DNA from: Escherichia phage vB_EcoS_fKuEco01 | Sequence record: MT711525.1 | Strand: one strand, 5' to 3' | Length of the DNA stretch: 40,825 bases | Shown: one piece after another, positions 4,331 to 35,903 of the stretch | Layout of the letters: each line of letters starts with the position of its first letter | Position numbering within the stretch: the first letter of the stretch is position 1 | Program-made: the position numbers and the translations under genes | Notes under the pieces: generated by a model | Databases searched by the model: none | What the model was told of the DNA's origin: nothing | Seen by the model: the letters and a program-made list of their open reading frames with translations, nothing else

Positions 4331-4334
4331 ACTG

Positions 4335-4356
4335 AAGCCCCGAAAGGGGCTTTTTA
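4335..4356 (+). terminator. rho-independent terminator
   Basis: agccccgaaaggggc hairpin followed by TTTTT. Confidence 0.7.
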
Positions 4357-4405: not shown

Positions 4406-4421
4406 AACTATTCGAATAGTT
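4406..4421. promoter_or_regulatory. perfect 16-bp palindrome AACTATTCGAATAGTT (operator-like), overlapping the -35 of the downstream promoter
   Basis: exact reverse-complement symmetry read from the sequence; flanked by TTATTCC/GGAATAA repeats at 4367-4406. Confidence 0.55.
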
Positions 4422-4448
4422 GACTTTTCACCAAAAATGTGCTAAGCT
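4420..4448 (+). promoter_or_regulatory. sigma70-type promoter (TTGACT-17 bp-TGcTAAGCT)
   Basis: -35 TTGACT at 4420-4425, 17-bp spacer, extended -10 TGc-TAAGCT at 4443-4448. Confidence 0.6.
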
Positions 4449-4451
4449 CCA

Positions 4452-4562
4452 CCTGAGCTTGTGAAGTATGAACAAGCGACCGCGGCGCGGGCAGGTAACG
4501 GAGCGGGACGTAAGTCCTGAGTGTAGTTACGCTGACGCGTTCGGAAGGGCCATACTCTATTG
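4452..4562 (+). ncRNA. conserved promoter-proximal RNA element, copy 1 (function unknown; candidate cis-acting leader or small RNA)
   Basis: two conserved blocks identical or near-identical to 34316-34428, separated by a divergent ~35-nt centre; 1-nt indel between copies breaks any shared reading frame. Confidence 0.5.
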
Positions 4563-4628
4563 CTTGTGTAAAAAGTAACTGGTTTACTGAGATTACGCCG
4601 TTTCTATGTTTAAATGATAAGGACTAGC

Positions 4629-4655
4629 GCCCCGCTTTAAGGCGGGGCTTTACTT
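4629..4655 (+). terminator. terminator-like hairpin (GCCCCGC-N6-GCGGGGC) with TTTACTT tail
   Basis: 7-bp GC stem followed by a U-rich tract, between the RNA element and Rz. Confidence 0.45.
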
Positions 4656-6867: not shown

Positions 6868-6892
6868 CAAAGGGGCTTCGGCCCCTTTTTAC
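6868..6892 (+). terminator. rho-independent terminator after capsid gene
   Basis: aaaggggcttcggcccc hairpin followed by TTTTT. Confidence 0.75.
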
Positions 6893-10201: not shown

Positions 10202-10224
10202 AAGGCCCCGTTTGGGGCCTTTTT
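10202..10224. terminator. bidirectional terminator hairpin AAGGCCCC-GTTT-GGGGCCTT
   Basis: 8-bp GC stem with T-runs on both strands at a convergent gene junction; exact reverse complement recurs at 22728-22747. Confidence 0.7.
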
Positions 10225-10225
10225 C

Positions 10226-10780
10226 TTACAAACCTAATCTTAAAGCAATGCCTATAGCGTTCGATTTAACGTAACCCGGTATGATGTAGGTGTCATAATC
10301 TTTTACACCATCAATATCGTACAGGTAACCGCGGCTGTCCCCTTCAAACGTATGGCCGTCTCTGTGCAAGCGGACGATTCTCACATCATGCCCCGCGGCA
10401 ACGATAGGGGCTACTTCGCTGGCGAACCCGCCATCAGACACCACAAAAACTTCGTCGCCGTCGGGCAAGTTTCCGGCAAGATACTTACCGAAATAATCAT
10501 CACCGAATACCGGTTTAATGAATTGCTCGGAAATGGCAATCATGAACTGACGCCGAGACAACCCGTTAAGGAAACCCTCTGGCTTTTCTTTCCGCGCCCG
10601 GTCGTCGTAGCCGTCGAGAAACTCGCGGTAAGCATCCTGGCCTAACGCAGCCATAGCAATATTGAACATCGGATTCTTGAAACTGGCGACACCCTTCGCA
10701 AAGCCCATTTCTACCAGCGCCCTAGCAAGTGTGTCTTTCCCGCAGCCCGCAGGACCATTAAGAATAATTACCTTAGCCAT
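10226..10780 (-). CDS. P-loop kinase, dNMP-kinase-like
   Basis: 184 aa; N-terminal Walker A GPAGCGKDT resembling T4 gp1-type nucleotide kinases. Confidence 0.65.
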   Translation of the reverse strand: MAKVIILNGPAGCGKDTLARALVEMGFAKGVASFKNPMFNIAMAALGQDAYREFLDGYDDRARKEKPEGFLNGLSRRQFMIAISEQFIKPVFGDDYFGKYLAGNLPDGDEVFVVSDGGFASEVAPIVAAGHDVRIVRLHRDGHTFEGDSRGYLYDIDGVKDYDTYIIPGYVKSNAIGIALRLGL

Positions 10781-11265
10781 TATTTATCACTCCCATGTGG
10801 TTTTAAGTGTGTAGAGTTCCCGTTACAGTCGTATTCAGTAACTGCGTGAGTGGTTATGCCGAGTTCGCGGAAATGCTTTATTACCGCTGGAGAGTCGTCG
10901 AATGCACACAAGATTCTCTCCGGCCCAATAGCACGCAACACCTCTTCTTTAATTACGATGTCTTTTCTGTTGTCGTGTTTGCTGCGCATGATTAACTGAT
11001 AAAATTCGACGCGGTGGCGCTGCAACCACATTCTGGTTTCTTTTTCCGCGTCATCACTACGGCCTGTTAAGATAATAACGGCATAGCGACGATTAAGGGC
11101 GTTACACAGTTCGATGTTATCTTTAATGGGTGCATCGTCTTTGCACGCCATGTTAAATGGTTTCCACGCCCAGGTTTCGCCGTAGTTATCTTTCGGCAGC
11201 AGGTGTAAACGATGAGTACCATCTGCCAATGTCCCGTCTAAATCGAAAATCACAATATCTTTCAT
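10780..11265 (-). CDS. HAD-family phosphatase resembling the T4 Pnkp 3'-phosphatase domain
   Basis: 161 aa; N-terminal DLDGT motif and a C-terminal segment matching the T4 polynucleotide kinase/phosphatase domain as recalled. Confidence 0.65.
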   Translation of the reverse strand: MKDIVIFDLDGTLADGTHRLHLLPKDNYGETWAWKPFNMACKDDAPIKDNIELCNALNRRYAVIILTGRSDDAEKETRMWLQRHRVEFYQLIMRSKHDNRKDIVIKEEVLRAIGPERILCAFDDSPAVIKHFRELGITTHAVTEYDCNGNSTHLKPHGSDK

Positions 11266-12392
11266 CCAAGCATCTCCGGTGAAATAGTTAAACGTGCGAC
11301 CTCGCCATATTCGGCGCTATAAGTAATTACGTTTGCACTGCGGCCCGACATCCACCCACCGCGGGAGGCATATGCATCTTTAGCCGCGAGAGTGCGGTGT
11401 TGCTCAACAATCATGTTACGGCTTTCTACAATCTTTTGGTGGTGCAGGTGACCCACGTGGGCGTAGCTGTAAACACTCTCGCCGAACGCTTTGCGGAACT
11501 TGGCAATCATAACCGGTTCGATAGCGTCGAATCGTGCTTTATGCCCATGATGGAAGAACAGCGTCGTTTTGCCGTGTTGCACCATCTTGTAAACATCCGG
11601 CGACGTATCGACGAACACACGCGGTTCATTGTCGTACAGCGTACTAAACATCTCAGCTAACCAAATCATTCCGCTTTCGTCGTGGTTACCTTGCACGATA
11701 AGCAAGCGAACATTTTTATGTTTAACGAGAGCCATATCAATGACACGGCGGACCATACGAATCATGTAGCGTACAAGTTTCTGATAGCGGGCGTCAGCGT
11801 CAAGAACATGACCACTGGCAGGTGTAACGGCGTCCAGACTATCGAAATGCGCAAGGTCGCCCAGCAGATTAATAACTCCTGTTCCGGCATCCGGTGCTTT
11901 CTGGAACGCTGCGTCGAACCAGCGGGAGAACAGGTCTTCCGCAATCTTCATGTCCCAGTCGTCGCCGCTCTCGTCAGCCCAGGCCAGCATACCGAGATGG
12001 AAATCAGACACAGTGTAAAGGTTGAGTAGCTTGTCGTCTCGTTTGGCGCGAACGGCTTTAACAGGTGCAACTGGTGTAATCTCCGACTTCATGCCTTCGA
12101 TTACGGCTTTCATCAATTCAACCTGACGTTCGGCATCGGTGTCGGTCTTAACCCATTGCAACTTGGTGTTGCCAAACTCATCCACCAGTGATGATGTTCC
12201 TTTAATCTTGTAGCCGTCCGGTACAAGGTAACTAACGTCACGCCCGTGGCCTACACCTTTCTTAGCCAGCTTCGCTTTACGTATACGAATAACGCGGTCG
12301 GAGATGCCGTATTTACGGGCGATGTCGATATTCTTCATACCGGCGTTCAATTCTTCCTGTAACTGTTCGTCGGTTATTTTCTTCCTGGCCAT
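11262..12392 (-). CDS. HTH domain fused to calcineurin-like metallophosphoesterase (SbcD/Mre11-like motifs)
   Basis: 376 aa; motifs DFHLG, GDLAHFD, GNHDE, HHGH, GHLHH; basic N-terminal helix-turn-helix-like region. Confidence 0.7.
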   Translation of the reverse strand: MARKKITDEQLQEELNAGMKNIDIARKYGISDRVIRIRKAKLAKKGVGHGRDVSYLVPDGYKIKGTSSLVDEFGNTKLQWVKTDTDAERQVELMKAVIEGMKSEITPVAPVKAVRAKRDDKLLNLYTVSDFHLGMLAWADESGDDWDMKIAEDLFSRWFDAAFQKAPDAGTGVINLLGDLAHFDSLDAVTPASGHVLDADARYQKLVRYMIRMVRRVIDMALVKHKNVRLLIVQGNHDESGMIWLAEMFSTLYDNEPRVFVDTSPDVYKMVQHGKTTLFFHHGHKARFDAIEPVMIAKFRKAFGESVYSYAHVGHLHHQKIVESRNMIVEQHRTLAAKDAYASRGGWMSGRSANVITYSAEYGEVARLTISPEMLG

Positions 12393-12429
12393 GCTTATTC
12401 CTCGTGTTTAGGATTTGTCCTATACTAGC

Positions 12430-12636
12430 TCACTTCTCTTTGACATTCGAGTTGCACGCCCAGATTAAGATAAATACCCACGGCAGCAGAACCCAACCAA
12501 GAAACAGATTAGCCATGAATATCGCTAACTTCGCTTTATGGCTACGGAAGTACGCAACCAGGAAAGGCGCGAAATAAGCTAGCAGTGCAAACAGAATTAA
12601 GGAAACTGGTAAACTTGACATTTTAAACCCCTTCAT
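12430..12636 (-). CDS. small two-TM membrane protein, resembles superinfection-immunity (Imm-type) proteins
   Basis: 68 aa (63 from second ATG at 12621); hydrophobic helices with LGWxxxPW-ILIWA-like motif; first gene after the island promoter. Confidence 0.5.
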   Translation of the reverse strand: MKGFKMSSLPVSLILFALLAYFAPFLVAYFRSHKAKLAIFMANLFLGWVLLPWVFILIWACNSNVKEK

Positions 12637-12651: not shown

Positions 12652-12680
12652 ATAGTACCCTATTATATTGGGGTGTGCAA
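12652..12680 (-). promoter_or_regulatory. early-type promoter TTGCACAC-17-TACTATTCACTTA driving the minus-strand island
   Basis: reverse complement of 12645-12690 matches the promoter units at 34582-34610 and 35875-35903. Confidence 0.55.
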
Positions 12681-13237: not shown

Positions 13238-13570
13238 GTGGATAAGCATAAAATCAGAGAGTTTGATTCTATAGCCGACGGACACGAACAGGCGCTTATC
13301 GCGATGGGTGTAATCGATAAGAAAAAACGTGCAGCGCGACGGGGTGGGCCAGAATGCCCGCCCCTTTTTATATCCACCTTCGAGACGTACTGCGACATTA
13401 AGTTTACGCGACACGTGCGCGAGGACGCTGTAGTATTGTTCGCAAGAGAATCCGTTACGTGGCAAGACCTGAAAGCCTATCTCGATGTTACGCAAAAACA
13501 GCTTAGCCTGTTCGAGATAGACATTATCATGGGCTTAGAAGCAATCTTTGAAGGTAGAAATCATGGCTGA
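13238..13570 (+). CDS. tail assembly chaperone frameshift extension (GT-like)
   Basis: -1 frame relative to 12789-13205, open from 13181; overlaps the upstream ORF by 25 nt; ends overlapping tape-measure start. Confidence 0.5.
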   Translation: MDKHKIREFDSIADGHEQALIAMGVIDKKKRAARRGGPECPPLFISTFETYCDIKFTRHVREDAVVLFARESVTWQDLKAYLDVTQKQLSLFEIDIIMGLEAIFEGRNHG

Positions 13571-22727: not shown

Positions 22728-22750
22728 AAGGCCCCAAACGGGGCCTTTTC
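22728..22750. terminator. bidirectional terminator hairpin AAGGCCCC-AAAC-GGGGCCTT
   Basis: exact reverse complement of the hairpin at 10202-10221; sits at the convergent junction of tailspike and replication module. Confidence 0.7.
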
Positions 22751-22751
22751 T

Positions 22752-22889
22752 CTACTCTTCTGATAACTTCTCCAGTACAAACGCCAGTTGCGCATTAGCG
22801 GCGTCTCTCTGCTGCCGTAGCCGTAGAACCTCCTCCTCAAGTTCCTTGATACGTTTTTGCAATGCCGGAATCGGGGCTATGATGTTCAT
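22752..22889 (-). CDS. small coiled-coil protein
   Basis: 45-aa ORF whose ATG overlaps the SNF2 helicase stop (ATGA); leucine-heptad content. Confidence 0.3.
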   Translation of the reverse strand: MNIIAPIPALQKRIKELEEEVLRLRQQRDAANAQLAFVLEKLSEE

Positions 22890-24310
22890 TTCTTACCTCG
22901 TCTCTTCATGTAATTAAGCAACTCTTCCTGGACCGATTTCTTCTCGTCAGTACGCGAGGCAACAACCTCGTCCAGCGTGTCTTTAGCAACGATGTGATAG
23001 AGGAACACTGGTCGCTCATGGCCCGCCTGCTTCTGGCGCACCGGGCCTATACGCTCGACAACCTGCAAATAGTGCTCAAGGTTCCAGCCTTGCGAAATAA
23101 ACGCCAGATGATGTCCGCCGTCCTGTAAATTCAAACCATGGCCGGCTGACGCGGGGTGAACGCACAAAATCTCGATTTCACCCCGATTCCACGCTTCCAT
23201 CTGCTTATTACCTTTCGCACCTTTGGCAAACGCCTGCGCCTGTGGGAATCGCTTAAGGATGCGCTCCAGTTCGTGCTTGAACTGATAAGCCACAAGTAAC
23301 GGTGCGCCCTGTAGCTCCTCAACAATCGACTCAAGCGCGTCCAGTTTCGTATCGTGTACTTTCTCCCAGTCTTTGGTTGCCTCACCGTCTGGCCCCGACA
23401 CATATACGGCACCGGAGGCAATCTGCAAACACTTTGACGTCTTCGCCGCCGCGTTAGCCGCTTCAACTTCTCCGCTCTCCAGTTCCGCGAATAACTTCTC
23501 CTCCATATCTAGGTACGCCTGACGTGCCTTCTTCGGCAGGTCGATTTCAACCGGCACTATAATAGGTGCTTCACACCCAAACCACTCAGCGGCGTCAATA
23601 GTGAGACTAATGTCCTTCATCTTCTGGTGGATCTCATTATCTGCACCAGGACGCGCATGATACTCCCGCGCCATCGCCGACTTACCTTTCTGTACCGAGT
23701 TAAACCATCGGTAGGTGAATGCCGTATATGAGGACCCCAGGCGCTCGCCGGCGTCGATAAACCAGTTCTGACCCCACAGGTCCTTGAGGCCGTTTGGTGA
23801 GGGCGTGCCGGTAAGGTTTATAAAACGCTTAACCTTTCCAAACGCCACCTTACTGAGCGCCTTTGCCCGCTTGCTACCACCTGAACGGCTGCGGAATGAT
23901 TTCAGCTTCGTGCTTTCGTCGGCGACGATAACGGTAAAAGGCCAGTCGTCTTTGCCGTAGTAGTCAATCAGCCATTCGATAACTTCGTAGTTTGTACACA
24001 CCACGTTAGCGTCTGATTCCAGCGCCGCGATGCGGCGCTTCTCTGAACCTGTCGCGTCTACGACACGCAGACATGGGAAATTCCATTTCTCTTGCTCTGC
24101 CGGCCATGTGCCGGACGCAACACGTAAAGGAGCCAGAATTAACACGCGGTCGTCGTCCGTAAGTTGCCCGTTGCGGAACAGGCGGTTTAAAGTCCACAGG
24201 ACGCTGCCAGTCTTCCCGGCGCCCATGCTCGCCCAAATATTACAGCGATGGTGCTGCAACATGAACGAGGTCATGAGCTTCTGGTATTCGCGCCTTTGAA
24301 ACTTACTCAT
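22886..24310 (-). CDS. SNF2/DEAD-like helicase
   Basis: 474 aa; Walker A MGAGKTG and DEST box (VADEST). Confidence 0.75.
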   Translation of the reverse strand: MSKFQRREYQKLMTSFMLQHHRCNIWASMGAGKTGSVLWTLNRLFRNGQLTDDDRVLILAPLRVASGTWPAEQEKWNFPCLRVVDATGSEKRRIAALESDANVVCTNYEVIEWLIDYYGKDDWPFTVIVADESTKLKSFRSRSGGSKRAKALSKVAFGKVKRFINLTGTPSPNGLKDLWGQNWFIDAGERLGSSYTAFTYRWFNSVQKGKSAMAREYHARPGADNEIHQKMKDISLTIDAAEWFGCEAPIIVPVEIDLPKKARQAYLDMEEKLFAELESGEVEAANAAAKTSKCLQIASGAVYVSGPDGEATKDWEKVHDTKLDALESIVEELQGAPLLVAYQFKHELERILKRFPQAQAFAKGAKGNKQMEAWNRGEIEILCVHPASAGHGLNLQDGGHHLAFISQGWNLEHYLQVVERIGPVRQKQAGHERPVFLYHIVAKDTLDEVVASRTDEKKSVQEELLNYMKRRGKK

Positions 24311-25127
24311 TTACGGCCCCCATAAACGCCTTTATAAATTCGGCGGCTACTTGCGGGACGATGGCATTGCCGTAACCGCGCAATCGTCCCACTCTTGCGG
24401 GTATCCCATTAGCCAGCGGGAATGCGCCGGGTTCAACCGGCCGGAACTTTCCATCACGGCATCCGAGCCAGTCAGCATCTGACCAGAAGCCGTGGTGCGG
24501 GTTGGTTGACTCGCTTTCAATCCCTGCTCTGTTGAGTAGTCCAGCCTGTCGAATGTTCTGTCCCTCCCGCCCGTGCGAATCACTGTCTCTCCGCTCCCTC
24601 TGAAGTCGTTCGCACACGGTGTTGGCCAGTTGCTGCGCTCCGAAGAACAATCGATTCCTTTTGTGCGGTGCGCCGACGCTACAAGCTGGGAGTACGGCAA
24701 ACCCGACGGCGTAGTCTTCTCTTTCCAGGTGAGTTTGTAAATCGCACATCCACGATTTTGCAATTGCTGCCGCAACCTGCTCCCCAAAGATAACTGGAGG
24801 GCGGCACTCGCTGATGAGGTCGAGGAACACAGGTGCGAGGTGTCTCTGGTCGAACTGTCCGAGTTGCTTTCCTGCCGTGCTAAACGGTTGGCAAGGCGGG
24901 CTTCCCGTCCAGAGAGGCGCATCTTCCGGAACTCCCGCAAGTCTGAGCGCGAGAGGCCAGCCGCCGATACCAGCGAAAAAATGACACTGGGTGAACCCGT
25001 CAAGGTCTTCTGGTCTAACTTCGGTAATGCTTCTTTCATCTACAACTCCAAAAGGTATGTGACCCTGTTTTATTAATTCACGCAGCCACGCGGCTGCGCC
25101 TTTATCCCATTCGTTGTAATAGTTCAT
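24303..25127 (-). CDS. DNA (cytosine-5) methyltransferase
   Basis: 274 aa; motif I FAGIGGW, motif [12 protein letters not shown]-terminal GNAIVPQV. Confidence 0.75.
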
Positions 25128-25315
25128 TTCGCCACCAGAACCAGTTCCTTACGCCCGAACGCCGTAACGTTTCCTGTTACATCTTCGATAACCAGTTTAC
25201 CGTTCGACTCGACGAACACCGTATCAACGGCAACAGGGTGGCGGGTCTTAACGTTGAAAATCATATCGCCAGGTACGATGTCACGTGCTGGTTTACGGTC
25301 ATATTCGTGTTTCAT
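25124..25315 (-). CDS. hypothetical protein
   Basis: 63-aa ORF, first gene downstream of the minus-strand promoter at 25349-25377. Confidence 0.45.
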   Translation of the reverse strand: MKHEYDRKPARDIVPGDMIFNVKTRHPVAVDTVFVESNGKLVIEDVTGNVTAFGRKELVLVAK

Positions 25316-25345
25316 TTCTCAATTCCTTATATTGTTGGTGTGTGA

Positions 25346-25645
25346 TTAACTATAATAGCTCGCTATTAGGTCGTCAACCTGTTTAAACGAACCAACGATA
25401 AAAACATTTGCACCGCGTTTACGCATCCGCTCGTGCTCACGTATCTGGTGCGGGTCTGGCTTCGTGTTTTCGTCTTTCTTAACCTCGACGAACCATATGA
25501 CGCCGCCAGGGAGAATTACCAGCAGGTCGGGAGCGCCGGAGCGCCCCTCGTAGGAGAGCTTACGAACGAGGCCGCCGATGGCCTCGAATCGCTCTTTTGC
25601 GTATTTCTGTATTTTGCCTTCCGGTGTCATGAGCGCGGAATCCAA
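25346..25645 (-). CDS. VRR-NUC domain nuclease
   Basis: PD-(D/E)XK-like PDLLVIL ... FVEVKKDE arrangement; likely true start ATG at 25630. Confidence 0.65.
   Translation of the reverse strand: MDSALMTPEGKIQKYAKERFEAIGGLVRKLSYEGRSGAPDLLVILPGGVIWFVEVKKDENTKPDPHQIREHERMRKRGANVFIVGSFKQVDDLIASYYS
25349..25377 (-). promoter_or_regulatory. sigma70 promoter TTGACG-17-TATAGT
   Basis: near-consensus hexamers; lies within the 3' end of the VRR-NUC gene. Confidence 0.5.
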
Positions 25646-25982
25646 GTAAGGAAAGCCCCGCCTAGAACGGCAACGCCAACAAACTTAAAGAACAGGCCGT
25701 AACAGAACATCGCGGCTATTCCCGCACCGAGTAACAGCGCGAGCATGGTTACTATCGTCCAAAATACAAACATTGTCATAATACGCACCCCTCACGTTTC
25801 GTATGTTCAATACCACAGCGCGGGCAGATTCGACAGTCTTCTTCATAAAACCAGTAAATTTTCATTCCAGCACCCACAGATAAATTGCGATGAACATGCC
25901 CAATATGGCAACCATCATGCCGTATTGACCCTCGTGACAGTAGACACCGGCAGCAAATCCCGCCAGTACCGCGATAATCAGT

Positions 25983-28163
25983 TTACTTGGCATAACGCTT
26001 CATCTCCGCGCCTTCTGCTACAAGAGGGAACCCCTCGGCCCACTCTGGTAATTCGCACATCAATCGTTCCAGTTCTGCGACATTGTATTCTGGTAAATCT
26101 GGTGTCTCGCAGATAATCTCATCGTGAACATGAAGCACAATCGGGTAGCCGTTTGCTTCGACGTTCAGCAGTGCATTAGCCAACAAATCACGGCACAGCG
26201 CCTGAGTGCAGTTTTCCACCAGTTTACCAGAGTAGGTGTACTGGAAGCCCCACTGACGGGTTAACTGGTTTTCGCCCTGGTACTTGATGCGCACGTTGGT
26301 AGACACCTTCCCGTCTTCGTCTGTCTCTTTCGACACGCTTAACCCGACGCCAGGGTATGACATAACTCGACCAGACGGCAACGTCATACGCAACCACCAA
26401 CCGGCGACTTTGTTGCCGTTGTTGTCCGTTTCTACGTTGCGCGAAAACTTAACTCCCCGCGGCCCTGCGGTGAACTCTTTGCCCGGATTGCGGATAGCTG
26501 CCATAGCTGCGTCTTCAATATCCCGCCAGAAAGCTACTGTTTCCGGGTGTGACTCACGCCACATACGCTTGATAGCGTCGCAGGTACGCCACACTTTCTT
26601 ATCAAGAATATAAGATGGTCGGTCATCATTTTCACCTGGACGTGGTGGTCGCTTGGCTTCCTGAATACGCGCCCACTCATATCCACGTGCGGTAGCAGCC
26701 CAGATGTGGTCGGGGAAAGTCCCGTCCATTGTTTTTGCCATATCAACAAGGTCAAGGCCGAGGTTCTTGGCGAACTGTACGAATGCGCCGACACCACCCG
26801 CGTAGCCAAGTCCAAGTTCGCATGCCTTACCAATCTGGCGTAAGTCTTTACGTTCTTTCTTAATGTAATCCGGCTCCATGCCGAACATCTTGCCTGCGGT
26901 TACGCAGTAAATATCCAGCCCGGCACGGAACGTATCAAGCGCGGTTTCTTCGCCAGCCAGCCACGCCAAACCGCGGCCTTCAACGTTCGAGTAGTCGGCG
27001 ACGACAAACTTATACCCGGCTTCCGGGATAATGCAGCTGCGAACCGTAGATGCCGTTAGCTTGGCTACATCAAAACGGCGATGTGCTCGGCCCTTAAGTA
27101 ATGCTGAAATACCTTTATCCAGTTCATCATCGTGATAGTACCCACGCGCCAGGTTCTGCGGCTGGAAGCCTTTACCCGCAAATCGTAACGTACGTTTAGC
27201 TCCACCATACTGGATGCAACCGCGACGGCGGTCGTCAGACGAGCGGCCTAACAGCAGCGGGTTATATTTCGTTGATGCAGTGGATGCCGCCCCGAGGCGC
27301 ATTTCTATAATCGTGCGGGCGTCGTCCGGTAAATCATCGTCAGCAAGCAGGTCGTTAAGCGTAGACTTCTGCGCGTTGTGGATGCGATGCGCAGGCGCCA
27401 GTTCACGCAGAATCGGCAGGAAGTCCTTACCTGTAAGCGAGCCGCCGTATTTACGTTGGGCTTCTTCCTGTAACTGTGCCTTGTGTTTCTCCACAGCTTC
27501 AATTGCGGCTTCCGCCAGCGCAACGTCGACCTTAAACCCGCGGTCGTTAATTAACTGGTCCAGTTCCAGTACACGGTCTTCGAACTCGGAGTTACCCCAA
27601 CGCGGCAACTTATGGAACACTTCACGCATCGCGGTGATGTCGCTAACGGCGTACTTGATGAACAGCGCCCACTCATCCGGGTGCGTTTCAGCAGTGTAGC
27701 GGCGAATTTTGTAGTTCTTCGGCGTCGGTTTAGAGAAACGCTGAATAAGCGCTTTGCCTCGTTTGTCTTTCGCGTTGTCTGCAGACACGCCAAGCACTTC
27801 GCACAATGCGTCGAGTGAACCCGGCAGCGCGTGACGAAACGCCCAAATCATCGTATCAATGGTGTTGCTTACGGGAATATCAAAACCCCAGCAGTGCTTC
27901 ATGATGAGTCTGTCGAACATTGAGCCGTTGTGCCACACCATCTTAATACGGCTGTTTGGTTTCACCAGACGGCGTAACGCGCGGTGCAAATCACCCGGCA
28001 TGTCGCTGCCGTTGGTGCAATCCCATACCTGCACAGGCTCGTCGTCAAAAGCATATGTGCAGATTAGAACTTCGGTGGTTGGATGTTCGGCGTAAGCGTA
28101 GGAGCCGACTTTCTTCAAATCGGCTTCTGAGAATGTTTCAAAGTCTAAGAACAGGTAACTCAT
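25983..28163 (-). CDS. DNA polymerase, family A, with 3'-5' exonuclease domain
   Basis: 726 aa; exo motif DFETFS; polymerase motifs DYSNVEGR, K-x-Y-G block and HVHDEI. Confidence 0.85.
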   Translation of the reverse strand: MSYLFLDFETFSEADLKKVGSYAYAEHPTTEVLICTYAFDDEPVQVWDCTNGSDMPGDLHRALRRLVKPNSRIKMVWHNGSMFDRLIMKHCWGFDIPVSNTIDTMIWAFRHALPGSLDALCEVLGVSADNAKDKRGKALIQRFSKPTPKNYKIRRYTAETHPDEWALFIKYAVSDITAMREVFHKLPRWGNSEFEDRVLELDQLINDRGFKVDVALAEAAIEAVEKHKAQLQEEAQRKYGGSLTGKDFLPILRELAPAHRIHNAQKSTLNDLLADDDLPDDARTIIEMRLGAASTASTKYNPLLLGRSSDDRRRGCIQYGGAKRTLRFAGKGFQPQNLARGYYHDDELDKGISALLKGRAHRRFDVAKLTASTVRSCIIPEAGYKFVVADYSNVEGRGLAWLAGEETALDTFRAGLDIYCVTAGKMFGMEPDYIKKERKDLRQIGKACELGLGYAGGVGAFVQFAKNLGLDLVDMAKTMDGTFPDHIWAATARGYEWARIQEAKRPPRPGENDDRPSYILDKKVWRTCDAIKRMWRESHPETVAFWRDIEDAAMAAIRNPGKEFTAGPRGVKFSRNVETDNNGNKVAGWWLRMTLPSGRVMSYPGVGLSVSKETDEDGKVSTNVRIKYQGENQLTRQWGFQYTYSGKLVENCTQALCRDLLANALLNVEANGYPIVLHVHDEIICETPDLPEYNVAELERLMCELPEWAEGFPLVAEGAEMKRYAK

Positions 28164-28178
28164 TATTTTTGACCCTTA

Positions 28179-28203
28179 GTAAAAAGGCCCAATGAAGGGC
28201 CTT
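28179..28203 (-). terminator. hairpin with U-run between SSB-like gene and polymerase gene (attenuator-like)
   Basis: AGGCCC-N6-GGGCCT stem followed on the minus strand by TTTTT. Confidence 0.45.
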
Positions 28204-28222
28204 AGTTAAATTGATTCAGATA

Positions 28223-28849
28223 TTAGCGACGACGACGCTCGCGGCGCGGTGCTTCATCTTCTTCGTCGTCTTCCAGGTCATTTACGCTGGCAGCGACTTT
28301 AGAACCGCCAAACGCTTTGCCTTCGCCAATGTATTTAATCGCCAGCAGGTTAACGCCGAGGACTTTATATTTCTGACTGAACCAGATTTCAACGCTTACG
28401 TTAGCGACGCAGCCGCTGTAAACCTGTTCACCTTCAATCTGTTCGCCGTCTACATTGAAGTCCTGTTCTACCTGAGTCTCGCCTTTTTTAGAGGTTACAA
28501 TCAGTGGCTGTTTCTGTGCCTTCGCCTTGAAGTAGAAGCCTTCCGGGAAGTCTTCAAACGGATTGTCGCGCTCGGCAATGTCTTTAATCGCACATTTATC
28601 CATGTGCTTACCTTCGCCGTAGTTGGACTTCATCCACTTCTCAGCGGCAGCTGCGCCCAACGCTTCTTCAACCACAGCGTAAACGGTGTCGTAGAGCGCG
28701 TCGATTTGTGCGTGGTCAGACGGCAGGATGATAGTCGCGCTGTACTGGCCTTTAGTGATTGAGCCATCATCGTTTTCACGGTCTTTTTCGCGTTCGAATA
28801 CGTTAACCCATGCAGTGTTTACTTTACGCAGATTCAGTTTAATACCCAT
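28223..28849 (-). CDS. putative ssDNA-binding protein (DUF2815-like) with acidic C-terminal tail
   Basis: 208 aa; C-terminal DDEEDE tail; position next to polymerase. Confidence 0.45.
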   Translation of the reverse strand: MGIKLNLRKVNTAWVNVFEREKDRENDDGSITKGQYSATIILPSDHAQIDALYDTVYAVVEEALGAAAAEKWMKSNYGEGKHMDKCAIKDIAERDNPFEDFPEGFYFKAKAQKQPLIVTSKKGETQVEQDFNVDGEQIEGEQVYSGCVANVSVEIWFSQKYKVLGVNLLAIKYIGEGKAFGGSKVAASVNDLEDDEEDEAPRRERRRR

Positions 28850-28902
28850 CGTGATTTCTCGCTTTTCAGTTTACTCCGGGAACTGCCCGGCCAGTGATTA
28901 GA

Positions 28903-28931
28903 ACTATAATAGCTAACTATTCAGGTGTCAA
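28903..28931 (-). promoter_or_regulatory. sigma70 promoter TTGACA-17-TATAGT with GAATAGTTAGCTAT in spacer
   Basis: consensus -35 and near-consensus -10 read on the minus strand. Confidence 0.6.
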
Positions 28932-28935
28932 CACT

Positions 28936-30201
28936 TTATTCCAAATCTTCTTCACTAACCTGATTCCACTCAGGACGTTTGTCGTCTGCCGTTGCGAGAC
29001 ATGGTGCGCCTGGCTTACGGGTAATAAACGGCTCAAGCGCTGCCATCTCATCCGCCGAAAGAACTTTTGCTGCCTCCGTAGGGGTCATCAATACCTCTTT
29101 TTTGAGAATGTCGCCGTGTGACACTTCAATCGCATCGGCATCTTTCCACGCACGGCTGCCCATCTTACCTTCAACCAGCTTGTACCCAGGAACTTTCTTA
29201 CCGGAATGCAATGCGGCGGTCATCGCTTTCTCAACCTTGTCGATGTGCTGGCGTAACAGCGGCAACTTCTCATACTCAACTACGAGTTGCTCCGTCGTCA
29301 GTTCCAGCACAAAGTCGTCTTCAAGTTCTTCCGCCAGTACAGAATTAACCGTCTTTGTACGCGCGGCACACTGTTCAGAGAACCGGCACCACTGGCAACC
29401 ATCTACTGACGGCTTAAAGTCTGACGCTTTCAGGTTCTTCTTACCGCGGAAATATGCATCAAGTGCTAACAGTGCTCGTTTTTGTGCGAACTTAGCGAAC
29501 AGTTCCAGGCCTTCAACCGAGATATCCCACTCCGACGCACCCCCAGCGTACGGCTGGAAGATGACCAGGCGCACTGCTGTGATGTTATAACGTCTCTTGA
29601 GTCGGCGATAAACACCGAGAGCGTAAAGCATAAGCTGCTTGTTTTCTTTCGCTTCAACACGATGCCGTCCAGTTTTAAGGTCGCCAATAATGAGCATGTG
29701 CTCGTCGGTGTTCGCCAGTTCCTGGACAGCAACGAGGTCAGCCGTTCCGAACGTCTCGACACCTTCATACCCAGGATGCAATACCTCAGTAAGATTGACT
29801 CGCATTTCCAGCTTGGCGTAAGTCGCTACGTCGATAATCGCTTTGCAGTAGTCGGTGTACTTGCGCACCTGCTCGATCATGTCCGCCGTAATCAGTACCG
29901 CGCCTTTCATCGGGCTGATTAGCGCCTTAATCTGGCCTTTACCCTCATCCAGCACATAAGCGCCAACTTCACGCTCTAATGGCAGAGCAGTGCCTTTGAT
30001 GTACTGGTTAAGATGCATCTCGGCTATGGTGTGCATAGCTGTGCCTAATACCGCGGCTTTACCGGACGTGTTAGGAATATCTTTTTCACAGGCCAGAGAA
30101 GCCGGGCAGGTTAGCCACTTTTTAGCGCCTGACGGTGATAGTAAGGCGTGTACATCGTTATTGCCGCCGCGTTCCTTTAAAATCATACCCTGCTCTCCCA
30201 C
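28936..30201 (-). CDS. PD-(D/E)XK nuclease, Cas4/RecB-like, with cysteine cluster
   Basis: IIGDLKTG-type nuclease motif; N-terminal CPASLAC and C-terminal CQWCRFSEQC cysteines; probable ATG start at 30186. Confidence 0.55.
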   Translation of the reverse strand: MGEQGMILKERGGNNDVHALLSPSGAKKWLTCPASLACEKDIPNTSGKAAVLGTAMHTIAEMHLNQYIKGTALPLEREVGAYVLDEGKGQIKALISPMKGAVLITADMIEQVRKYTDYCKAIIDVATYAKLEMRVNLTEVLHPGYEGVETFGTADLVAVQELANTDEHMLIIGDLKTGRHRVEAKENKQLMLYALGVYRRLKRRYNITAVRLVIFQPYAGGASEWDISVEGLELFAKFAQKRALLALDAYFRGKKNLKASDFKPSVDGCQWCRFSEQCAARTKTVNSVLAEELEDDFVLELTTEQLVVEYEKLPLLRQHIDKVEKAMTAALHSGKKVPGYKLVEGKMGSRAWKDADAIEVSHGDILKKEVLMTPTEAAKVLSADEMAALEPFITRKPGAPCLATADDKRPEWNQVSEEDLE

Positions 30202-30455
30202 TGGTCAATTAAATGTCGTGTCTTATGGTCGCAGTGCATAGCCCAGCCATACATCGACTCGAAGACGTAAAAGTCCGGTTTGGCGAAAGTCGTGCGCTTA
30301 ATCTGCGACACGTGGCGGCCTATATCTTTAGGCCGTGGTACTTTGCCTAAGTACGCCATCTCTTCCATCTGGTGTGCCCCGGACGGCGCACGCAATAACC
30401 ATAGCGCATCTGTGTTATCCCGCCTGTCCACGGCGCGGTAGAGTTGGTAAATCAT
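30183..30455 (-). CDS. hypothetical protein
   Basis: 90-aa ORF. Confidence 0.45.
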   Translation of the reverse strand: MIYQLYRAVDRRDNTDALWLLRAPSGAHQMEEMAYLGKVPRPKDIGRHVSQIKRTTFAKPDFYVFESMYGWAMHCDHKTRHLIDQWESRV

Positions 30456-30498
30456 AATCCCGACCCTCAGTTAAAGCGGCCCGAAGGCCGCGGGATAG

Positions 30499-30969
30499 TT
30501 ATTCTTCTTCGAAATACTTGTTCTTGATTGCTGTCAGGCGCTCCAGATACTCAGCCAGGTCTTCGTCTTTAATCGCTGCAATCTTCATCTTCTTACCGGT
30601 AAACTCTTCCAGCAGTTCGTCAGAATCGTCGCACGCGGCATCGCTTGGGCCTTCGTTAATCGCATCGTCGATAGCCTGAATCTGGTCGCGCAGAGACTGG
30701 TAATCGACTTCTTCTTTCTCTTCTTCCGGCTCTGGCGTTGGCTCCTCTACTTTAGCTTTACGCGGCTTGCGCTTCGGCTTCTCTTCTTCTGCTGGTTTAG
30801 TGTCAATGGTGTCTTCACCTTCTACCGGGATTTCTTTCGTTACTTCTTTCACAACAGTAGGCTCTATTGTTGCAGTTTCGGCAACGACAACTTGTTTCGC
30901 ACTGTTCGCAGCAATCAGTTCATGTGCAACTACGAAACGTTCCAGTAATACTAAGAATTTCTCTAACAT
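30499..30969 (-). CDS. highly acidic protein of unknown function
   Basis: 156 aa, Glu/Asp-rich with a short basic patch; first gene after promoter 31001-31030. Confidence 0.5.
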   Translation of the reverse strand: MLEKFLVLLERFVVAHELIAANSAKQVVVAETATIEPTVVKEVTKEIPVEGEDTIDTKPAEEEKPKRKPRKAKVEEPTPEPEEEKEEVDYQSLRDQIQAIDDAINEGPSDAACDDSDELLEEFTGKKMKIAAIKDEDLAEYLERLTAIKNKYFEEE

Positions 30970-31000
30970 TTGTTTCTCTCCTCTCGTTTGGTATGGGCTA

Positions 31001-31030
31001 ACTATAATAGCTAACTATTCATGTTGTCAA
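31001..31030 (-). promoter_or_regulatory. sigma70 promoter TTGACA-18-TATAGT with GAATAGTTAGCTAT in spacer
   Basis: consensus hexamers; divergent from the HTH gene at 31095. Confidence 0.6.
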
Positions 31031-31094
31031 TGGGCTTTTCTAAAATAATTAATATGGTACTATTCACATATCAACTGACTAAGGAGTAATTGGC

Positions 31095-31310
31095 ATGCAA
31101 CCATCTGAACTAGGTATCCGTGTAGAGCAACGCCGTAAAGAACTCGGTATCTCCCAGCGCCATCTGGCTGTCCTGGCCGGTGTTTCCCAAGGCGCGATTA
31201 ACCAGCTGGCACTTGGGGTAACTCAGGACGTCCGCCCAGCGACGCTGTTTAAACTGGCGGAAGTGCTGCAAGTAGACGCCAAGTGGCTGGCGTTGGGTGA
31301 AGGGGCTTAA
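31095..31310 (+). CDS. XRE-family helix-turn-helix transcriptional regulator (Cro/CI-like)
   Basis: 71 aa; ISQRHLAVLAGVSQGAINQL HTH; AGGAG RBS; transcribed divergently from the replication genes. Confidence 0.7.
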   Translation: MQPSELGIRVEQRRKELGISQRHLAVLAGVSQGAINQLALGVTQDVRPATLFKLAEVLQVDAKWLALGEGA

Positions 31311-31326
31311 CGCCCTTTATTTTTAC

Positions 31327-33588
31327 CTATTCCAAATCCTCCTCTGTCACTGTCAGCATTTCATTCGGTTCGTATATCGTCTTCGGAATCTTGTTGTCGT
31401 TTATGCCCCACGGCAGCCGGTACTGCTTAGGTATGGGCCTGTTGTTGTTATCCAGACCCGAGACGATAATCCCGGCCTCATGCATCTCTTCCAGTTTCTT
31501 TCGAAGGTCGTTATTAGCGTTAATCGGTACGCCGTAACTATCTTCTTTCGCCGCTTTGACGATAGCTGACATAGAGAACCCTCGCTTGTCGTCGCCTTGC
31601 TCCTGCAATTTACCTAATGCGTAAATAACCGTAGCCTCTTTGGAATCCAGTTTCTCGAACTGGCCTACCTTTTCTTTAACGGCTTCCTTCTGTTCGTCAG
31701 TCATACCTTCTACTTTCTTCACAAAGACAGAGAAGGCGTTGAAGTTGACAAAGACATCAATATGCGGATTTCCCGCGTCAAAATCGCGCACATCATCACT
31801 GCTATACCCTTCCGGAAGCCCCATGAAGTTGTGAGTTGGTTCTTTCTTTTCCGGCGGCTCCGCTATCTGAATCTTCTGTATTACGAATCCTCTGGCTTTC
31901 TGCCGTTCTCCATTTCGGTTCTTTATGTGATACAGGTTTATCTCTAAGTTATTGTCGTTGTCTGGTTTATGCAGGAACATCCCGTTATCGATGGAGTTGT
32001 GAAAATCACTTCCACCCTTCGGCATCATGCCGTTTTCAGACGGAACAGTTTCGTCGATGTTTTTAGTCGGGTGCACCATAGCGCCTACCGCAGCGTTAAG
32101 CGTCGACGCTATTTCGTTAAGCGCCTGCGCCGCTTCTTTCATAGACCGGTTGTCGTTCTCGTCGAAGCCCGGTATGCAAGTTTGTAGAGTATCAAACGTA
32201 ACCTTTACAATTTTCTCTTCACCGGCGACACGGCGCATCATTCTCACCGCCTGGCGACGCCATGCTTCGTCGAGGAGGTTACACCCATCTGCAACACAAT
32301 CGATAATGTGTAAGCGGTCGAGGCTATCGCCAAGTGCAATCTGCAAAGATTTTTTATGTCTCTCGAACGACTGCGCACCTTCGCCCGCGAAGATAAATGC
32401 GTGACCTTCTGCGACCTCAGCACCACCGAACGCATATCTTTTTTCGGCGGCGATAGCAGCGTCAATCGCCATACTAAATGTTGACTTACCAGTGTGGGAC
32501 TTTGCGCAAATGTAGAACGATTCGTTGGTCTGCATAAGGCCGTCTACTACGGGGTAAGCAGGTTCTTTTTCTACTTCCGGCTCGTCTTCGAGGTCTTCAA
32601 GCGTACAAGTTACAGGCTCCTCGTTCTCTGTGCGGTGCAGTTCTTCAATCTCTTCGTCCGGTAAGTCAGGCAAAGCCGCACGAATGCTGTTAATACTGAT
32701 AGGTTGCTTGTCTACGTTAAGCTCGTCGGGCAGGCCGCACATACGCAAGGCCAAATGTTGCCGACGGTTAAGCTCGGTACAAGCGCCGTTGTTTGTGTGC
32801 TGGCACACGAAGCGCACCTCTTTACCGTCAAGCATGATGCTGGTGGAGCCTTTGCCTGTATGCAGATGTTCGTTCGGACATGGCACTTCATACCCTCGGC
32901 CGGAAGATAAAGCGTCAAGGCCCAGCTCGGCTTCGCAGAAATGAGCTATATCTGCGTTAAGCCCGTGCTCATCGGCGGCAAGTGTCTTAGCCTCGCGTTT
33001 ACGCAGCCCCATCTCTTCGGCTTTCTTGATGTACCGCTCCGCACGGATAACACGCCCTTCTGTAACCGTTATCTTAGACTCTTTATGCGGCAGGTAGATG
33101 AGGCGGTTGCCGTCTTCCGTGCAGTGGTCGCGCAGCGATTCATCTATTTCTAACTCGGCACAAATAGCACGTTGCACCATCCACGCGTCGTTAGAGTTAA
33201 ACGGCGTGCGAGCTGGAACCAGAACGCGGAATGCGTAATCCCCGTTTTTACACGCGTGCTGGTGTGACGCCGTTGTATGCAGAATGTTGAAGAACGGCGC
33301 ATTCTTAAATTTGCGTGTCAGGTTGCGGTACTGAGTACGGTTGAGATGGTCAAAGTCGAACTTAACCACACTGTCTTCCAGAATCGCGTTCTTACGGCGA
33401 CCACCAACAGGTGCGATAGCTTTCTGTTTAATCTTGGCGGCGTCGTACTCTTCCTTAGTCCACGACGGGTCCACGGATAAACGCTTCGATGTATCACAGA
33501 CATACTCCACAAACTGCTCCAGCGGCATTTCACGCGCTACAGGGTTTTTATCGAATGTGTTACGCAGCGTCGCAAAAACAATATTCAT
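31327..33588 (-). CDS. primase-helicase
   Basis: 753 aa; Cys/His zinc-binding segment; P-loop AKSHTGKST. Confidence 0.65.
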   Translation of the reverse strand: MNIVFATLRNTFDKNPVAREMPLEQFVEYVCDTSKRLSVDPSWTKEEYDAAKIKQKAIAPVGGRRKNAILEDSVVKFDFDHLNRTQYRNLTRKFKNAPFFNILHTTASHQHACKNGDYAFRVLVPARTPFNSNDAWMVQRAICAELEIDESLRDHCTEDGNRLIYLPHKESKITVTEGRVIRAERYIKKAEEMGLRKREAKTLAADEHGLNADIAHFCEAELGLDALSSGRGYEVPCPNEHLHTGKGSTSIMLDGKEVRFVCQHTNNGACTELNRRQHLALRMCGLPDELNVDKQPISINSIRAALPDLPDEEIEELHRTENEEPVTCTLEDLEDEPEVEKEPAYPVVDGLMQTNESFYICAKSHTGKSTFSMAIDAAIAAEKRYAFGGAEVAEGHAFIFAGEGAQSFERHKKSLQIALGDSLDRLHIIDCVADGCNLLDEAWRRQAVRMMRRVAGEEKIVKVTFDTLQTCIPGFDENDNRSMKEAAQALNEIASTLNAAVGAMVHPTKNIDETVPSENGMMPKGGSDFHNSIDNGMFLHKPDNDNNLEINLYHIKNRNGERQKARGFVIQKIQIAEPPEKKEPTHNFMGLPEGYSSDDVRDFDAGNPHIDVFVNFNAFSVFVKKVEGMTDEQKEAVKEKVGQFEKLDSKEATVIYALGKLQEQGDDKRGFSMSAIVKAAKEDSYGVPINANNDLRKKLEEMHEAGIIVSGLDNNNRPIPKQYRLPWGINDNKIPKTIYEPNEMLTVTEEDLE

Positions 33589-33713
33589 TTCTTTTTCTCC
33601 GCACGTTCTAAGGCTTCCTGCATACGGCGCATTGCGCGGTTCATCTTTACTGGTGCGAAGAAATCAGCGCCGTGTTTCTGGCGGCGTAGCTGTGGAACTA
33701 TTAACTTCGTCAT
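33585..33713 (-). CDS. small basic protein
   Basis: 42-aa ORF whose stop overlaps the primase start (ATGA). Confidence 0.3.
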   Translation of the reverse strand: MTKLIVPQLRRQKHGADFFAPVKMNRAMRRMQEALERAEKKK

Positions 33714-33763
33714 TGTATAATCCTTGTGCTTACTTTGATGATTTATGCTTCGGCCCCGACGTT

Positions 33764-33997
33764 CTAGCGTTGGGGTTTCTTTTGTCTACGCACCGCATTA
33801 ACCCACTCTCCTTCGCTACGGTAAAAACTGCAATCAAGGATATCCTCTATAGAAAATTTAACTATTTTAGTGGGTCCACAAAAGTTATAAGGGAAAAGTT
33901 CTACATAACACCCATCGTCGGTTATATTTGACGCAATCTTGAAATAATATTTAATGCTGCCGTCTTCGCGGAAGCTACAACCCATACGCCCAATCAT
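33764..33997 (-). CDS. hypothetical protein (AT-rich gene)
   Basis: 77-aa ORF with lower GC than its neighbours. Confidence 0.4.
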   Translation of the reverse strand: MIGRMGCSFREDGSIKYYFKIASNITDDGCYVELFPYNFCGPTKIVKFSIEDILDCSFYRSEGEWVNAVRRQKKPQR

Positions 33998-34176
33998 TTC
34001 ACGTTCTCCTTAATCCATGCTTCAACTTTATTACGGTCAAATGTTCCAGGCAAACGGCGACCCATAACCTTAATACAACAATCCGGGAATTTACCACTGC
34101 GTAACCAGTTATTAATTGTCTGACGTGTCACCCCAATACGCTCGGCTACTTCATTCTGGGTCATGTAATGTTGCAT
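33994..34176 (-). CDS. small HTH DNA-binding protein (AlpA/excisionase-like fold)
   Basis: ATG 34176 preceded by AGGAG; MTQNEVAERIGVTRQTINNW motif; track ORF extends to GTG 34248. Confidence 0.55.
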   Translation of the reverse strand: MQHYMTQNEVAERIGVTRQTINNWLRSGKFPDCCIKVMGRRLPGTFDRNKVEAWIKENVK

Positions 34177-34283: not shown

Positions 34284-34312
34284 TTGACTTTTACTGAGAA
34301 ATATGGTAAGCT
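34284..34312 (+). promoter_or_regulatory. sigma70-type promoter (TTGACT-17 bp-TGgTAAGCT)
   Basis: same architecture and -10 as the promoter at 4420-4448. Confidence 0.6.
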
Positions 34313-34315
34313 CGT

Positions 34316-34428
34316 CCTGAGCTTGTGAAGTATGAACAAGCGACCGCGGTGCGCGGCAGGCGAAACGAGCACGTCTCGACGTGTGGAGTGAGTCTCGCTG
34401 ACGCATTCGGAAGGGCCAAAGTCTATTG
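34316..34428 (+). ncRNA. conserved promoter-proximal RNA element, copy 2
   Basis: shares conserved 5' and 3' blocks with 4452-4562; central segment differs. Confidence 0.5.
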
Positions 34429-34499
34429 TAATTCCCGCCTAATTATCTAAGTTACTGATTTGCCGTAGGTTAGAACCGCCAGCTCACTCACTCACTCTT

Positions 34500-34530
34500 G
34501 GTGCCTTCGGCACCACGTTCGTTTCGTTTC
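34500..34530 (+). terminator. terminator-like hairpin GGTGCC-UUCG-GCACC with U-rich tail
   Basis: tetraloop hairpin followed by acgttcgtttcgtttcg. Confidence 0.4.
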
Positions 34531-34581
34531 GCTCGCTACCCCCTTAAACGAAAGAATCACAACGGCAACGTAACTAATCTC

Positions 34582-34610
34582 TTGCACACCCCAACATAAT
34601 AGGATACTAT
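34582..34610 (+). promoter_or_regulatory. early-type promoter TTGCAC-17-TACTAT with conserved leader
   Basis: near-identical unit at 35875-35903 and, on the minus strand, 12652-12680. Confidence 0.55.
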
Positions 34611-34644: not shown

Positions 34645-34830
34645 ATGTTTAAACGTGGTCAGTTGGTTAAATGCGCCGACGATAAACACGGCATAATTGA
34701 ATTAAAATCTGCTTTATTTCCAGGAAAGTACGTAGTTACCGTGCAAAATGTGAGAGGAGTAAATTCACAAATATACGTAGCGGAGGAGAACTTAAAACTC
34801 ATCGGCAACAATTTTAAATTTAAAGGGTGA
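34645..34830 (+). CDS. hypothetical early protein (AT-rich)
   Basis: ATG 34645 after GAGGAG; track ORF starts at GTG 34636. Confidence 0.45.
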   Translation: MFKRGQLVKCADDKHGIIELKSALFPGKYVVTVQNVRGVNSQIYVAEENLKLIGNNFKFKG

Positions 34831-35874: not shown

Positions 35875-35903
35875 TTGCACACTGGGATAGAATAGGCTAC
35901 TAT
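35875..35903 (+). promoter_or_regulatory. early-type promoter TTGCAC-17-TACTAT with conserved leader
   Basis: matches the unit at 34582-34610 including the AACGAGAGGAG leader. Confidence 0.55.

Follow-up and report, generated by a model that had tools for sequence, protein, structure and literature searches.

Positions 34284–34428 (+) of Escherichia phage vB_EcoS_fKuEco01 (MT711525.1) hold a promoter and a structured RNA, here called copy 2, which belong to a well-supported new family of structured RNAs within the Guernseyvirinae that were searched. The window, i.e., the whole 40,825-nucleotide (40.8-kb) stretch of DNA that was analyzed, is a complete Kagunavirus genome (Guernseyvirinae), and it contains a second such unit, copy 1. 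It is proposed that copy 2 is a functional member of this family and serves as the 5′ leader of long rightward operons. As for what the leader does, we tentatively favor, at somewhat less than even confidence, a cis-acting RNA that probably confers terminator readthrough, possibly as a put- or nut-like processive antiterminator.

The gene order of the window agrees with that of annotated relatives, and around copy 2 the sequence shares 97% identity with Escherichia phage vB_EcoS_fTaEco01. The + strand carries the genes for terminase, portal, head, and tail (1–22723), the − strand those for replication (22886–34176), and from approximately 34.6 kb the + strand carries small genes without assigned function, followed by the holin, endolysin, and small terminase genes. 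Copy 2 is found in the divergent intergenic region between an HTH gene (33994–34176, −) and this + strand block, whose first gene after copy 2 begins with the ATG at 34646. The initial annotation of this stretch had described the unit as divergent from the promoter of the HTH gene and upstream of an early-type promoter, and both statements are correct: the HTH gene has its own promoter, TTGCTT-17-TATACT, on the − strand (~34237–34209), and 3′ of the copy-2 unit lies an early-type sigma-70 promoter, TTGCAC-17-TACTAT (34582–34610, +), which is repeated exactly at 12652–12680 (−), with 0 such repeats expected by chance. That annotation also placed the unit at the head of the early gene region. 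The position at an operon head is sound, but the block is not purely early, as the lysis, terminase, and portal genes follow the small unknown ones without a break. Each copy stands at the head of a long + strand operon and points in its direction, and strong + strand terminators are present within both operons (2767, 6869, 10202, and 13341). A search for tRNA and tmRNA genes found none. A replication origin at the site was considered and rejected, since the GC skew merely tracks the direction of transcription.

Several features of this landscape can be recorded in passing. The repeated 29-bp early-type promoter has the sequence TTGCACACCCCAAyATAATAGGrTACTAT; its − strand occurrence at 12652–12680 drives a − strand cassette (10226–12636) embedded within the late + strand operon, and weaker partial copies are located near 35891 and 31050. 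Within the + strand late operons or at their ends, strong terminator-like hairpins are found at 2767–2782, 6869–6888, 10202–10221, 13341–13364, and 22728–22747; those at 10202 and 22728 are bidirectional, and the one at 13341 falls within the frameshift region of the tail chaperone.

When the segment 34201–34640 was compared with the window by BLAST, a single other match was obtained, at 4420–4562 (+), with 79.6% identity over 147 nt (E = 7.6e-24); the second promoter–RNA copy that had been reported at 34284 is thus real. In the pairwise alignment of the two copies, the −35 element, the extended −10 element, and the 5′ RNA block are near-identical and a 3′ block (CGCTGACGCrTTCGGAAGGGCCAwAsTCTATTG) is kept in both, while the center has diverged, which agrees with the earlier description of conserved 5′ and 3′ RNA blocks around a differing center. 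The copy-2 promoter (34284–34312, +) consists of the −35 hexamer TTGACT (34284–34289), a 17-bp spacer, and the extended −10 element TGGTAAGCT, i.e., TGgTAAGCT (34304–34312). The two copies have the same promoter architecture, as had been claimed, and the exact pattern TTGACT-N14-TGnTAAGCT occurs at only two sites in the window, 4420 and 34284. A simple sigma-70 scan of the window does not list the copy-2 promoter, because TAAGCT fits TATAAT only at T1, A2, and T6. Judged by these motifs, 34284–34312 would act as a promoter with its +1 at G34319, 7 bases past the −10 element. It is kept in all copy-2 types (B, C, and D; see below), and its Jerseyvirus version is TTGACT/TAGACT-17-TACGCT. In every lineage – Kagunavirus copy 1 and copy 2, and Jerseyvirus copy 1 – the RNA has its own extended −10 promoter and would begin, with its first hairpin, at the predicted +1.

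The −10 hexamer is nearly duplicated across +1 (TAAGCT..TGAGCT; 34307–34323 and 4443–4459), an arrangement that also creates the DNA palindrome AAGCTC-N5-GAGCTT and that has a counterpart in phage Jersey, where the −10 element is repeated as TACGCT-ACC-TACGCT (L131, 7289–7310). This repeat might serve as an operator or as a sigma-70-dependent, promoter-proximal pause element.

The structured core of copy 2 is 110 nt long (34319–34428, +) and scores 109 bits (E = 5e-27) with the covariance model R1, against which copy 1 scores 123 bits. In the MFE fold it opens with P1, a 5′-terminal hairpin (34321–34341; GCUUGU/ACAAGC with a 9-nt loop) that begins 2 nt from the putative +1. Three of the six pairs of P1 differ on both sides between Kagunavirus and Jerseyvirus (ACGC/GCGU in the latter), the switch being from GCU/AGC to CGC/GCG. 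P1 is followed by P2, predicted to be a long irregular hairpin with internal loops (34344–34410), whose base, CCG.GGUGCG/CGCAUU.CGG, includes two invariant G-U pairs and whose distal part (34354–34400) is variable; in copy 2 the tip of P2 is the hairpin CACGUC-UC-GACGUG (34370–34383). The core ends in a conserved single-stranded tail, AAGGGCCAAAGUCUAUUG (34411–34428), which is the 3′ limit of the segment common to copy 1. The shared flanks of the two copies therefore correspond to P1, the base of P2, and the tail GAAGGGCCAnAnUCUAUUG, and the differing center corresponds to distal P2, in which pairing is preserved by compensatory changes. The tail motif GUCUAUU/CUAUAUU is also present in K1G, Jersey (copy-2 position), and Cornellvirus, whose leaders are not homologous to this one.

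Pattern scans and BLAST supplied relatives of the core from IMG/VR, GenBank, and metagenomes, and the covariance model was built on 11 sequences. It recovers 71 members from the phage DNA that was fetched and matches the window at exactly two places. Copy 2 displays the traits of the family, namely P1, a P2 with the base CCGCGGnGC...GCn'UUCGG, and the tail GAAGGGyC..yUAUUG. In the alignment of the model matches, standard pairs fill 98.3% of the paired cells, compared with 27–43% when the partners are slid by 1–3 columns; the first of these figures is somewhat inflated, because the alignment was fitted to the covariance model, but this does not affect the diversity of pair types or the tip helices that have been exchanged entirely. 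Changes on both sides are observed in 9 of 22 pairs (e.g., CG/UA/AU at 42-102 and UA/GC/AU at 52-91), and the covariation score is 0.313, compared with 0.099 in shuffled alignments, none of which (0 of 500) reaches 0.313. Members fall into types A to E, whose distal P2 sequences are unrelated, yet each of these forms a tip hairpin of 5–7 bp with a purine-rich internal loop below it. Approximately 40 bases are invariant, and they are concentrated at the base of P2 (CCGCGG/UUCGG and the tandem G-U pairs), in the purine-rich internal loop, and in the tail. The RNA structure is under selection.

These results bear on the idea, put forward in the initial annotation, of a conserved scaffold with a variable targeting or stem segment. 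A stem segment it is: the variable center is distal P2, which is paired in types A to E, and the proximal helices covary. A targeting role, by contrast, found no support. The variable bases are sequestered in a helix. In the phage + strand transcripts, the variable segment, the tail, and the linker have perfect complements of at most 9–12 nt, which is within the range of shuffled sequences. A comparison with 5,426 E. coli genomes gave no BLAST-detectable similarity and no long complement. Copy 2 is also more than a decaying local duplication, since, where the copies differ, the changes compensate one another, and each copy has been preserved in many phages.

No conserved reading frame underlies this conservation: all six frames contain stops or change frame among variants of 107–110 nt. 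The 'hypothetical proteins' annotated here are thus unlikely to be real, because no frame survives the 1–2-nt indels among variants. A start–stop element or leader peptide from a conserved UUG was also rejected, as the UUG is absent in some variants and the peptide lengths are inconsistent. Likewise, long-range pairing in copy 2 of (CUCA)n or ACUUCACUC with the P2 internal-loop strand GGAGUGAG or GAGUGUAGU was discarded: the duplex energies do not differ significantly from those of shuffles (p = 0.07, 0.74, and 0.19; 0.03 for the K1G type), and in copy 1 no pairing of the P2 internal loop with the segment 5′ of the closing hairpin is found.

Downstream of the core, copy 2 has a linker (34429–34498, +) that constitutes a second module, with UAAGUUACUGA at 34449–34458, GCCGUAGG at 34462–34469, and (CUCA)n at 34483–34497. 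This linker is partly common to the copy-1 linker and to the leaders that stand at the copy-2 position in K1G and Jersey; its C-rich, G-poor composition would make it Rho-site-like. The (CTCA)n microsatellite lies directly 5′ of the copy-2 hairpin and has 3–4 units, compared with 7 in a related contig (L083); being C-rich and G-poor, it could serve as a Rho-loading site. The unit closes with the GC hairpin UGGUGCC-UUC-GGCACCA (34499–34515, +; 7 pairs, dG ~−11 kcal/mol), after which the sequence CGTTCGTTTCGTTTCG (34516–34531) is U-rich but broken. The initial annotation had reported a hairpin followed by a U-rich tract; the hairpin is there, but the tract is interrupted (CGUUCGUUUCGUUUCG, in the region 34499–34531) and would make a poor terminator. 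With a 7-bp stem, a dG of −11 kcal/mol, and the tail CGUUCGUUUCG, 34499–34531 is at best a weak intrinsic terminator. Other copy-2 types have a different hairpin, GGGGUGGGC-UAAC-GCCCACCC, without a U tract, and among all the units compared only the Kagunavirus copy-1 hairpin resembles a competent terminator, those of Jerseyvirus copy 1 and of all copy-2 types being without a good tract. In Jerseyvirus, UAGCGUA occurs after the P2 tip hairpin and again after the closing hairpin (L131, 7353–7366 and 7463–7476).

The copy-1 unit (4420–4648, +) comprises a promoter (4420–4448), the RNA core (4455–4562), a linker (4563–4628), and a terminator hairpin (4629–4648) followed by UUUACUUAU. From the end of this hairpin it is 24 nt to the i-spanin/o-spanin ATG (4673), beyond which lie the scaffold, capsid, and tail genes; no other + strand promoter was detected between the hairpin and this ATG, and upstream of the unit a strong terminator (4334–4355) closes the terminase–portal–head operon. 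The short gap, the lack of another promoter, and the upstream terminator imply that the copy-1 RNA must form the 5′ end of the capsid/tail mRNA. The distance from the hairpin to the spanin ATG is 24–27 nt in Kagunavirus, Jerseyvirus, and Cornellvirus. Across the whole copy-1 unit, linker and hairpin included, nucleotide diversity (pi) is 0.02–0.03, compared with 0.115 in the spanin gene, so the unit is 4–6 times less diverse than the adjoining gene.

Copy 1 is present in ~450 GenBank Kagunavirus and Jerseyvirus genomes, and its position is the ancestral, near-universal one. Type A occupies this position in Kagunavirus and some Jerseyviruses (180 GenBank phage records, ~42 of which have it at two places), and type E does so in most Jerseyviruses (269 records, with a single copy in all). 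Types B, C, and D are those of the copy-2 position, where the element occurs only in a subset of Kagunaviruses, in which it has taken the place of a different leader module. The core is absent in more distant relatives (Serratia Eta, Smarc3, a Klebsiella phage, and Cornellvirus). Scans of metagenomes and genomes with the pattern CCGCGGnGC-N45-75-GCnTTCGGAAGG gave, among the matches listed, almost exclusively chance hits in GC-rich genomes, together with at least a few genuine contigs of Kagunavirus. Within the reach of the searches, the RNA family is restricted to the Guernseyvirinae.

At the copy-2 position, K1G and Jersey have a promoter and a long structured leader with an unrelated 5′ module. 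Only the downstream part of these leaders is common to copy 2 (GUCUAUU, UAAGUnACUGA...GCCGU, the GC hairpin, and the early promoter), and for this reason copy 2 is regarded as the result of a replacement event. The comparison is best explained by a transfer of the copy-1 promoter and core into an older leader, where they took the place of its promoter and 5′ module, with the shared ...UCUAUUG motif as the probable 3′ junction. Exchange between the copies continues: in contig L049 (2220–2328), an element at the copy-1 position has a D-type P2 center, which is otherwise found only in copy 2 (compare L106, L119, and L129), and its sequence indicates gene conversion between the copies. The copy-1 position of Cornellvirus has another leader, which retains AUAGUCUAUU and a GC hairpin shortly before the spanin ATG. 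On such comparisons, leader modules appear to be interchangeable. Structured leaders with promoters of their own were seen in K1G (L393, 36685–37040), in Jersey at the copy-2 position (L131, 38860–39200), and in the Cornellvirus Shemara at the copy-1 position (L389, 880–1200); what they have in common is limited to short motifs (GUCUAUU; UAAGUnACUGA..GCCGU) and the closing GC hairpin.

The function that we favor for the leader can be set out as follows. Host sigma-70 RNA polymerase would initiate at the extended −10 promoter, and the first ~110 nt would fold co-transcriptionally into P1, P2, and the single-stranded tail. The leader RNA would then work in cis on its own transcribing complex, like HK022 put or lambda nut, so that the polymerase would pass the unit's closing hairpin or terminator and the Rho-prone untranslated leader, and subsequently the strong intrinsic terminators of the lysis–packaging block (copy 2) or of the capsid–tail block (copy 1). 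We infer the transcription start, the cis action, the antitermination, and the readthrough from the arrangement of the sequence elements. A cis-acting leader is favored over an independent gene because of the position at operon heads, the context of copy 1, the low diversity, the varying closing hairpins, and the internal terminators. The closing hairpins vary between types and the core is constant, which suggests that the core does not pair with its own terminator and fits a processive mechanism; similarly, a core that is exchangeable with other leader modules, and whose P2 centers are swapped between copies, fits a context-independent cis module. Long untranslated and partly C-rich leaders such as these would be Rho-sensitive. 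No N- or Q-like protein, including N-like PHROGs, was recognized among the 20 small phage proteins scanned, which leaves room both for an RNA-only mechanism and for a factor yet to be identified. Other observations weigh against the cis-acting reading. Most closing hairpins are without a good U tract, so that the unit would have little need of antitermination at its own end, and the separate, strong early-type promoter 3′ of copy 2 makes the downstream genes independent of copy 2. Moreover, antitermination that needs no factor would leave a structural operon without temporal control, and the highly conserved AU-rich linker and hairpin would fit a stand-alone small RNA as well.

Such a small RNA, of ~200–215 nt (34319–~34530 and 4455–~4655) and ended or processed at the GC hairpin, is the main rival, possible but unlikely. 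Its targets in trans would be host or phage RNAs, unless it served as a protein sponge; the 5′ domain would be the scaffold, and the AU-rich linker or tail the interaction surface. The discrete promoter-to-hairpin unit and the terminator-like copy-1 hairpin with UUUACUUAU are what this reading predicts, as are a linker and hairpin conserved as strongly as the core, a 5′ domain common to two copies with differing linkers, and a separate promoter downstream of copy 2 that makes a leader role dispensable. However, the essential genes after copy 1 have no other detected promoter and therefore need readthrough, most types have a short U tract or none, unlike Hfq-type sRNAs, and unrelated modules stand in for the core at the same position in K1G and Jersey; the lack of above-chance complements in the phage transcripts and of matches in the E. 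coli genomes argues in the same direction. The clustering of invariant bases at the P2 base, internal loop, and tail is typical of a protein recognition site, and the leader might, rather than act as RNA alone, bind a protein encoded by the phage or the host. With a nut/N-like antiterminator or some other regulator bound there, the late operons would be controlled in time. Delayed expression is needed for structural genes, and many small proteins annotated without function are encoded just downstream. Nevertheless, we consider this reading doubtful: the scan of 20 small proteins recognized no N, Q, or other antiterminator family, no co-varying protein was found, and there is no boxA-like element, the tail varying where boxA would be constant.

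A role as a 5′-UTR stability or processing element is improbable. P1 and P2 would shield the mRNA from 5′-end-dependent RNase E decay, and the GC hairpin near the start codon would indicate where the mRNA is processed to a stable 5′ end. The onset of P1 next to the putative +1, the hairpin 24–27 nt before the ATG in three genera, and the tolerance of varied leader modules at the copy-2 position would all be compatible with this role, but a generic stabilizer needs neither ~40 invariant bases nor a conserved single-stranded tail, and a pi of 0.02 over 230 nt and the co-copying with a promoter would be unexpected. We give very little credence to the last group of explanations, i.e., a ligand-sensing riboswitch or attenuator, a non-functional recent duplication, or a small ORF. 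The aptamer-like fold upstream of a hairpin does resemble a transcriptional riboswitch, but there is no Rfam match, even at E ≤ 10, and no conserved alternative pairing of the core with the closing hairpin, and the hairpins vary freely. For a small ORF, the hypothetical proteins of several GenBank records stand against the stops or frame shifts that appear in every frame among variants with 1–2-nt indels, and the compensatory nature of the inter-copy differences speaks against a non-functional duplication.

Among known systems, the cis-acting leader proposed here most invites comparison with the put sites of phage HK022, which suppress terminators without any factor by binding the zinc-binding domain of the beta' subunit. 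As in HK022, there are two copies per phage genome, each just 3′ of a sigma-70 promoter from which a long operon starts, in a phage with an E. coli host and no recognizable dedicated antiterminator protein. The HK022 putL RNA begins at +1 and forms two irregular stem-loops (PMC9378689), a likeness in both its start at ~+1 and its two bulged stem-loops. However, the RNA described here is longer (105–110 nt vs ~74 nt), combines a short P1 and a long P2 with a conserved single-stranded tail, and heads operons that include the late structural genes of a virulent siphophage. No homology was found: the covariance model has no match in the early region of HK022, and local alignment with putL is no better than with shuffles (p = 0.13).

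The nutL/nutR sites of lambda, which with N allow readthrough of multiple terminators, and the boxB–boxA–boxC elements of rrn operons offer a second parallel, as duplicated leader RNAs at the heads of two operons in which a hairpin adjoins a conserved single-stranded element. The element here is much larger, is fixed at +1, and lacks the boxA consensus: no CGCUCUUA-like sequence is found, and the tail varies at that place (ACUCU, AGUCU, AAUCU, GUUAU). There is also a likeness to the lambda pR′–6S RNA–tR′ arrangement, in which a constitutive-looking promoter, a leader of ~200 nt, and a terminator precede the lysis and morphogenesis genes, and in which a −10-like repeat lies near +1 (here TAAGCT..TGAGCT; in Jersey, TACGCT..TACGCT). 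However, Q systems depend on a DNA binding element and the Q protein rather than on a conserved RNA fold, and the promoter spacer is not conserved between copy 1, copy 2, and Jersey. With phage small RNAs and the phage motifs of Rfam the unit shares a compact, intergenic, non-coding promoter-to-hairpin layout; unlike those, it has no Rfam 15 match and no target complementarity that could be found. At the gathering threshold, Rfam 15 gave 0 matches in the whole window, and at E ≤ 10 around both copies only chance-level matches (E ≥ 0.8). Compared by eye with their consensus sequences, ops/RfaH-like and boxA-like motifs were a misfit and were set aside.

In the literature on Kagunavirus, on the Guernseyvirinae, and on these sequence motifs, no description of the leader RNA was found, and the single Kagunavirus transcriptome paper gives results for genes only. 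Phage operon-leader regulatory RNAs are known as a kind; what is new is this family, its architecture, and the mobility of a promoter-plus-RNA cassette between operon heads. Very few systems of RNA-only or RNA-centered processive antitermination are known (HK022 put, EAR, and the leaders of conjugative elements). That the present RNA represents a further RNA-only class, unrelated to put, in which a cassette of a promoter and ~110 nt of RNA would render the polymerase of E. coli or Salmonella resistant to termination, is a bold and rather unlikely proposition. If it held, virulent Guernseyvirinae phages would drive their late operons with a portable cassette that is copied and exchanged between operon heads. 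If the RNA is an antiterminator, it would be a second, unrelated enterobacterial phage RNA of this activity and a new handle on the reprogramming of RNA polymerase by nascent RNA; it would explain how late operons of 18–20 kb are expressed through internal terminators in ~450 Kagunavirus and Jerseyvirus phages that are candidates for therapy, and it would provide a compact promoter–leader part for synthetic operons. Whatever its function, it is a new structured RNA that is mis-annotated as a 'hypothetical protein' in several GenBank records; the call at 7265–7456 of L131 (N271_gp08), for example, overlies the RNA and is probably false.
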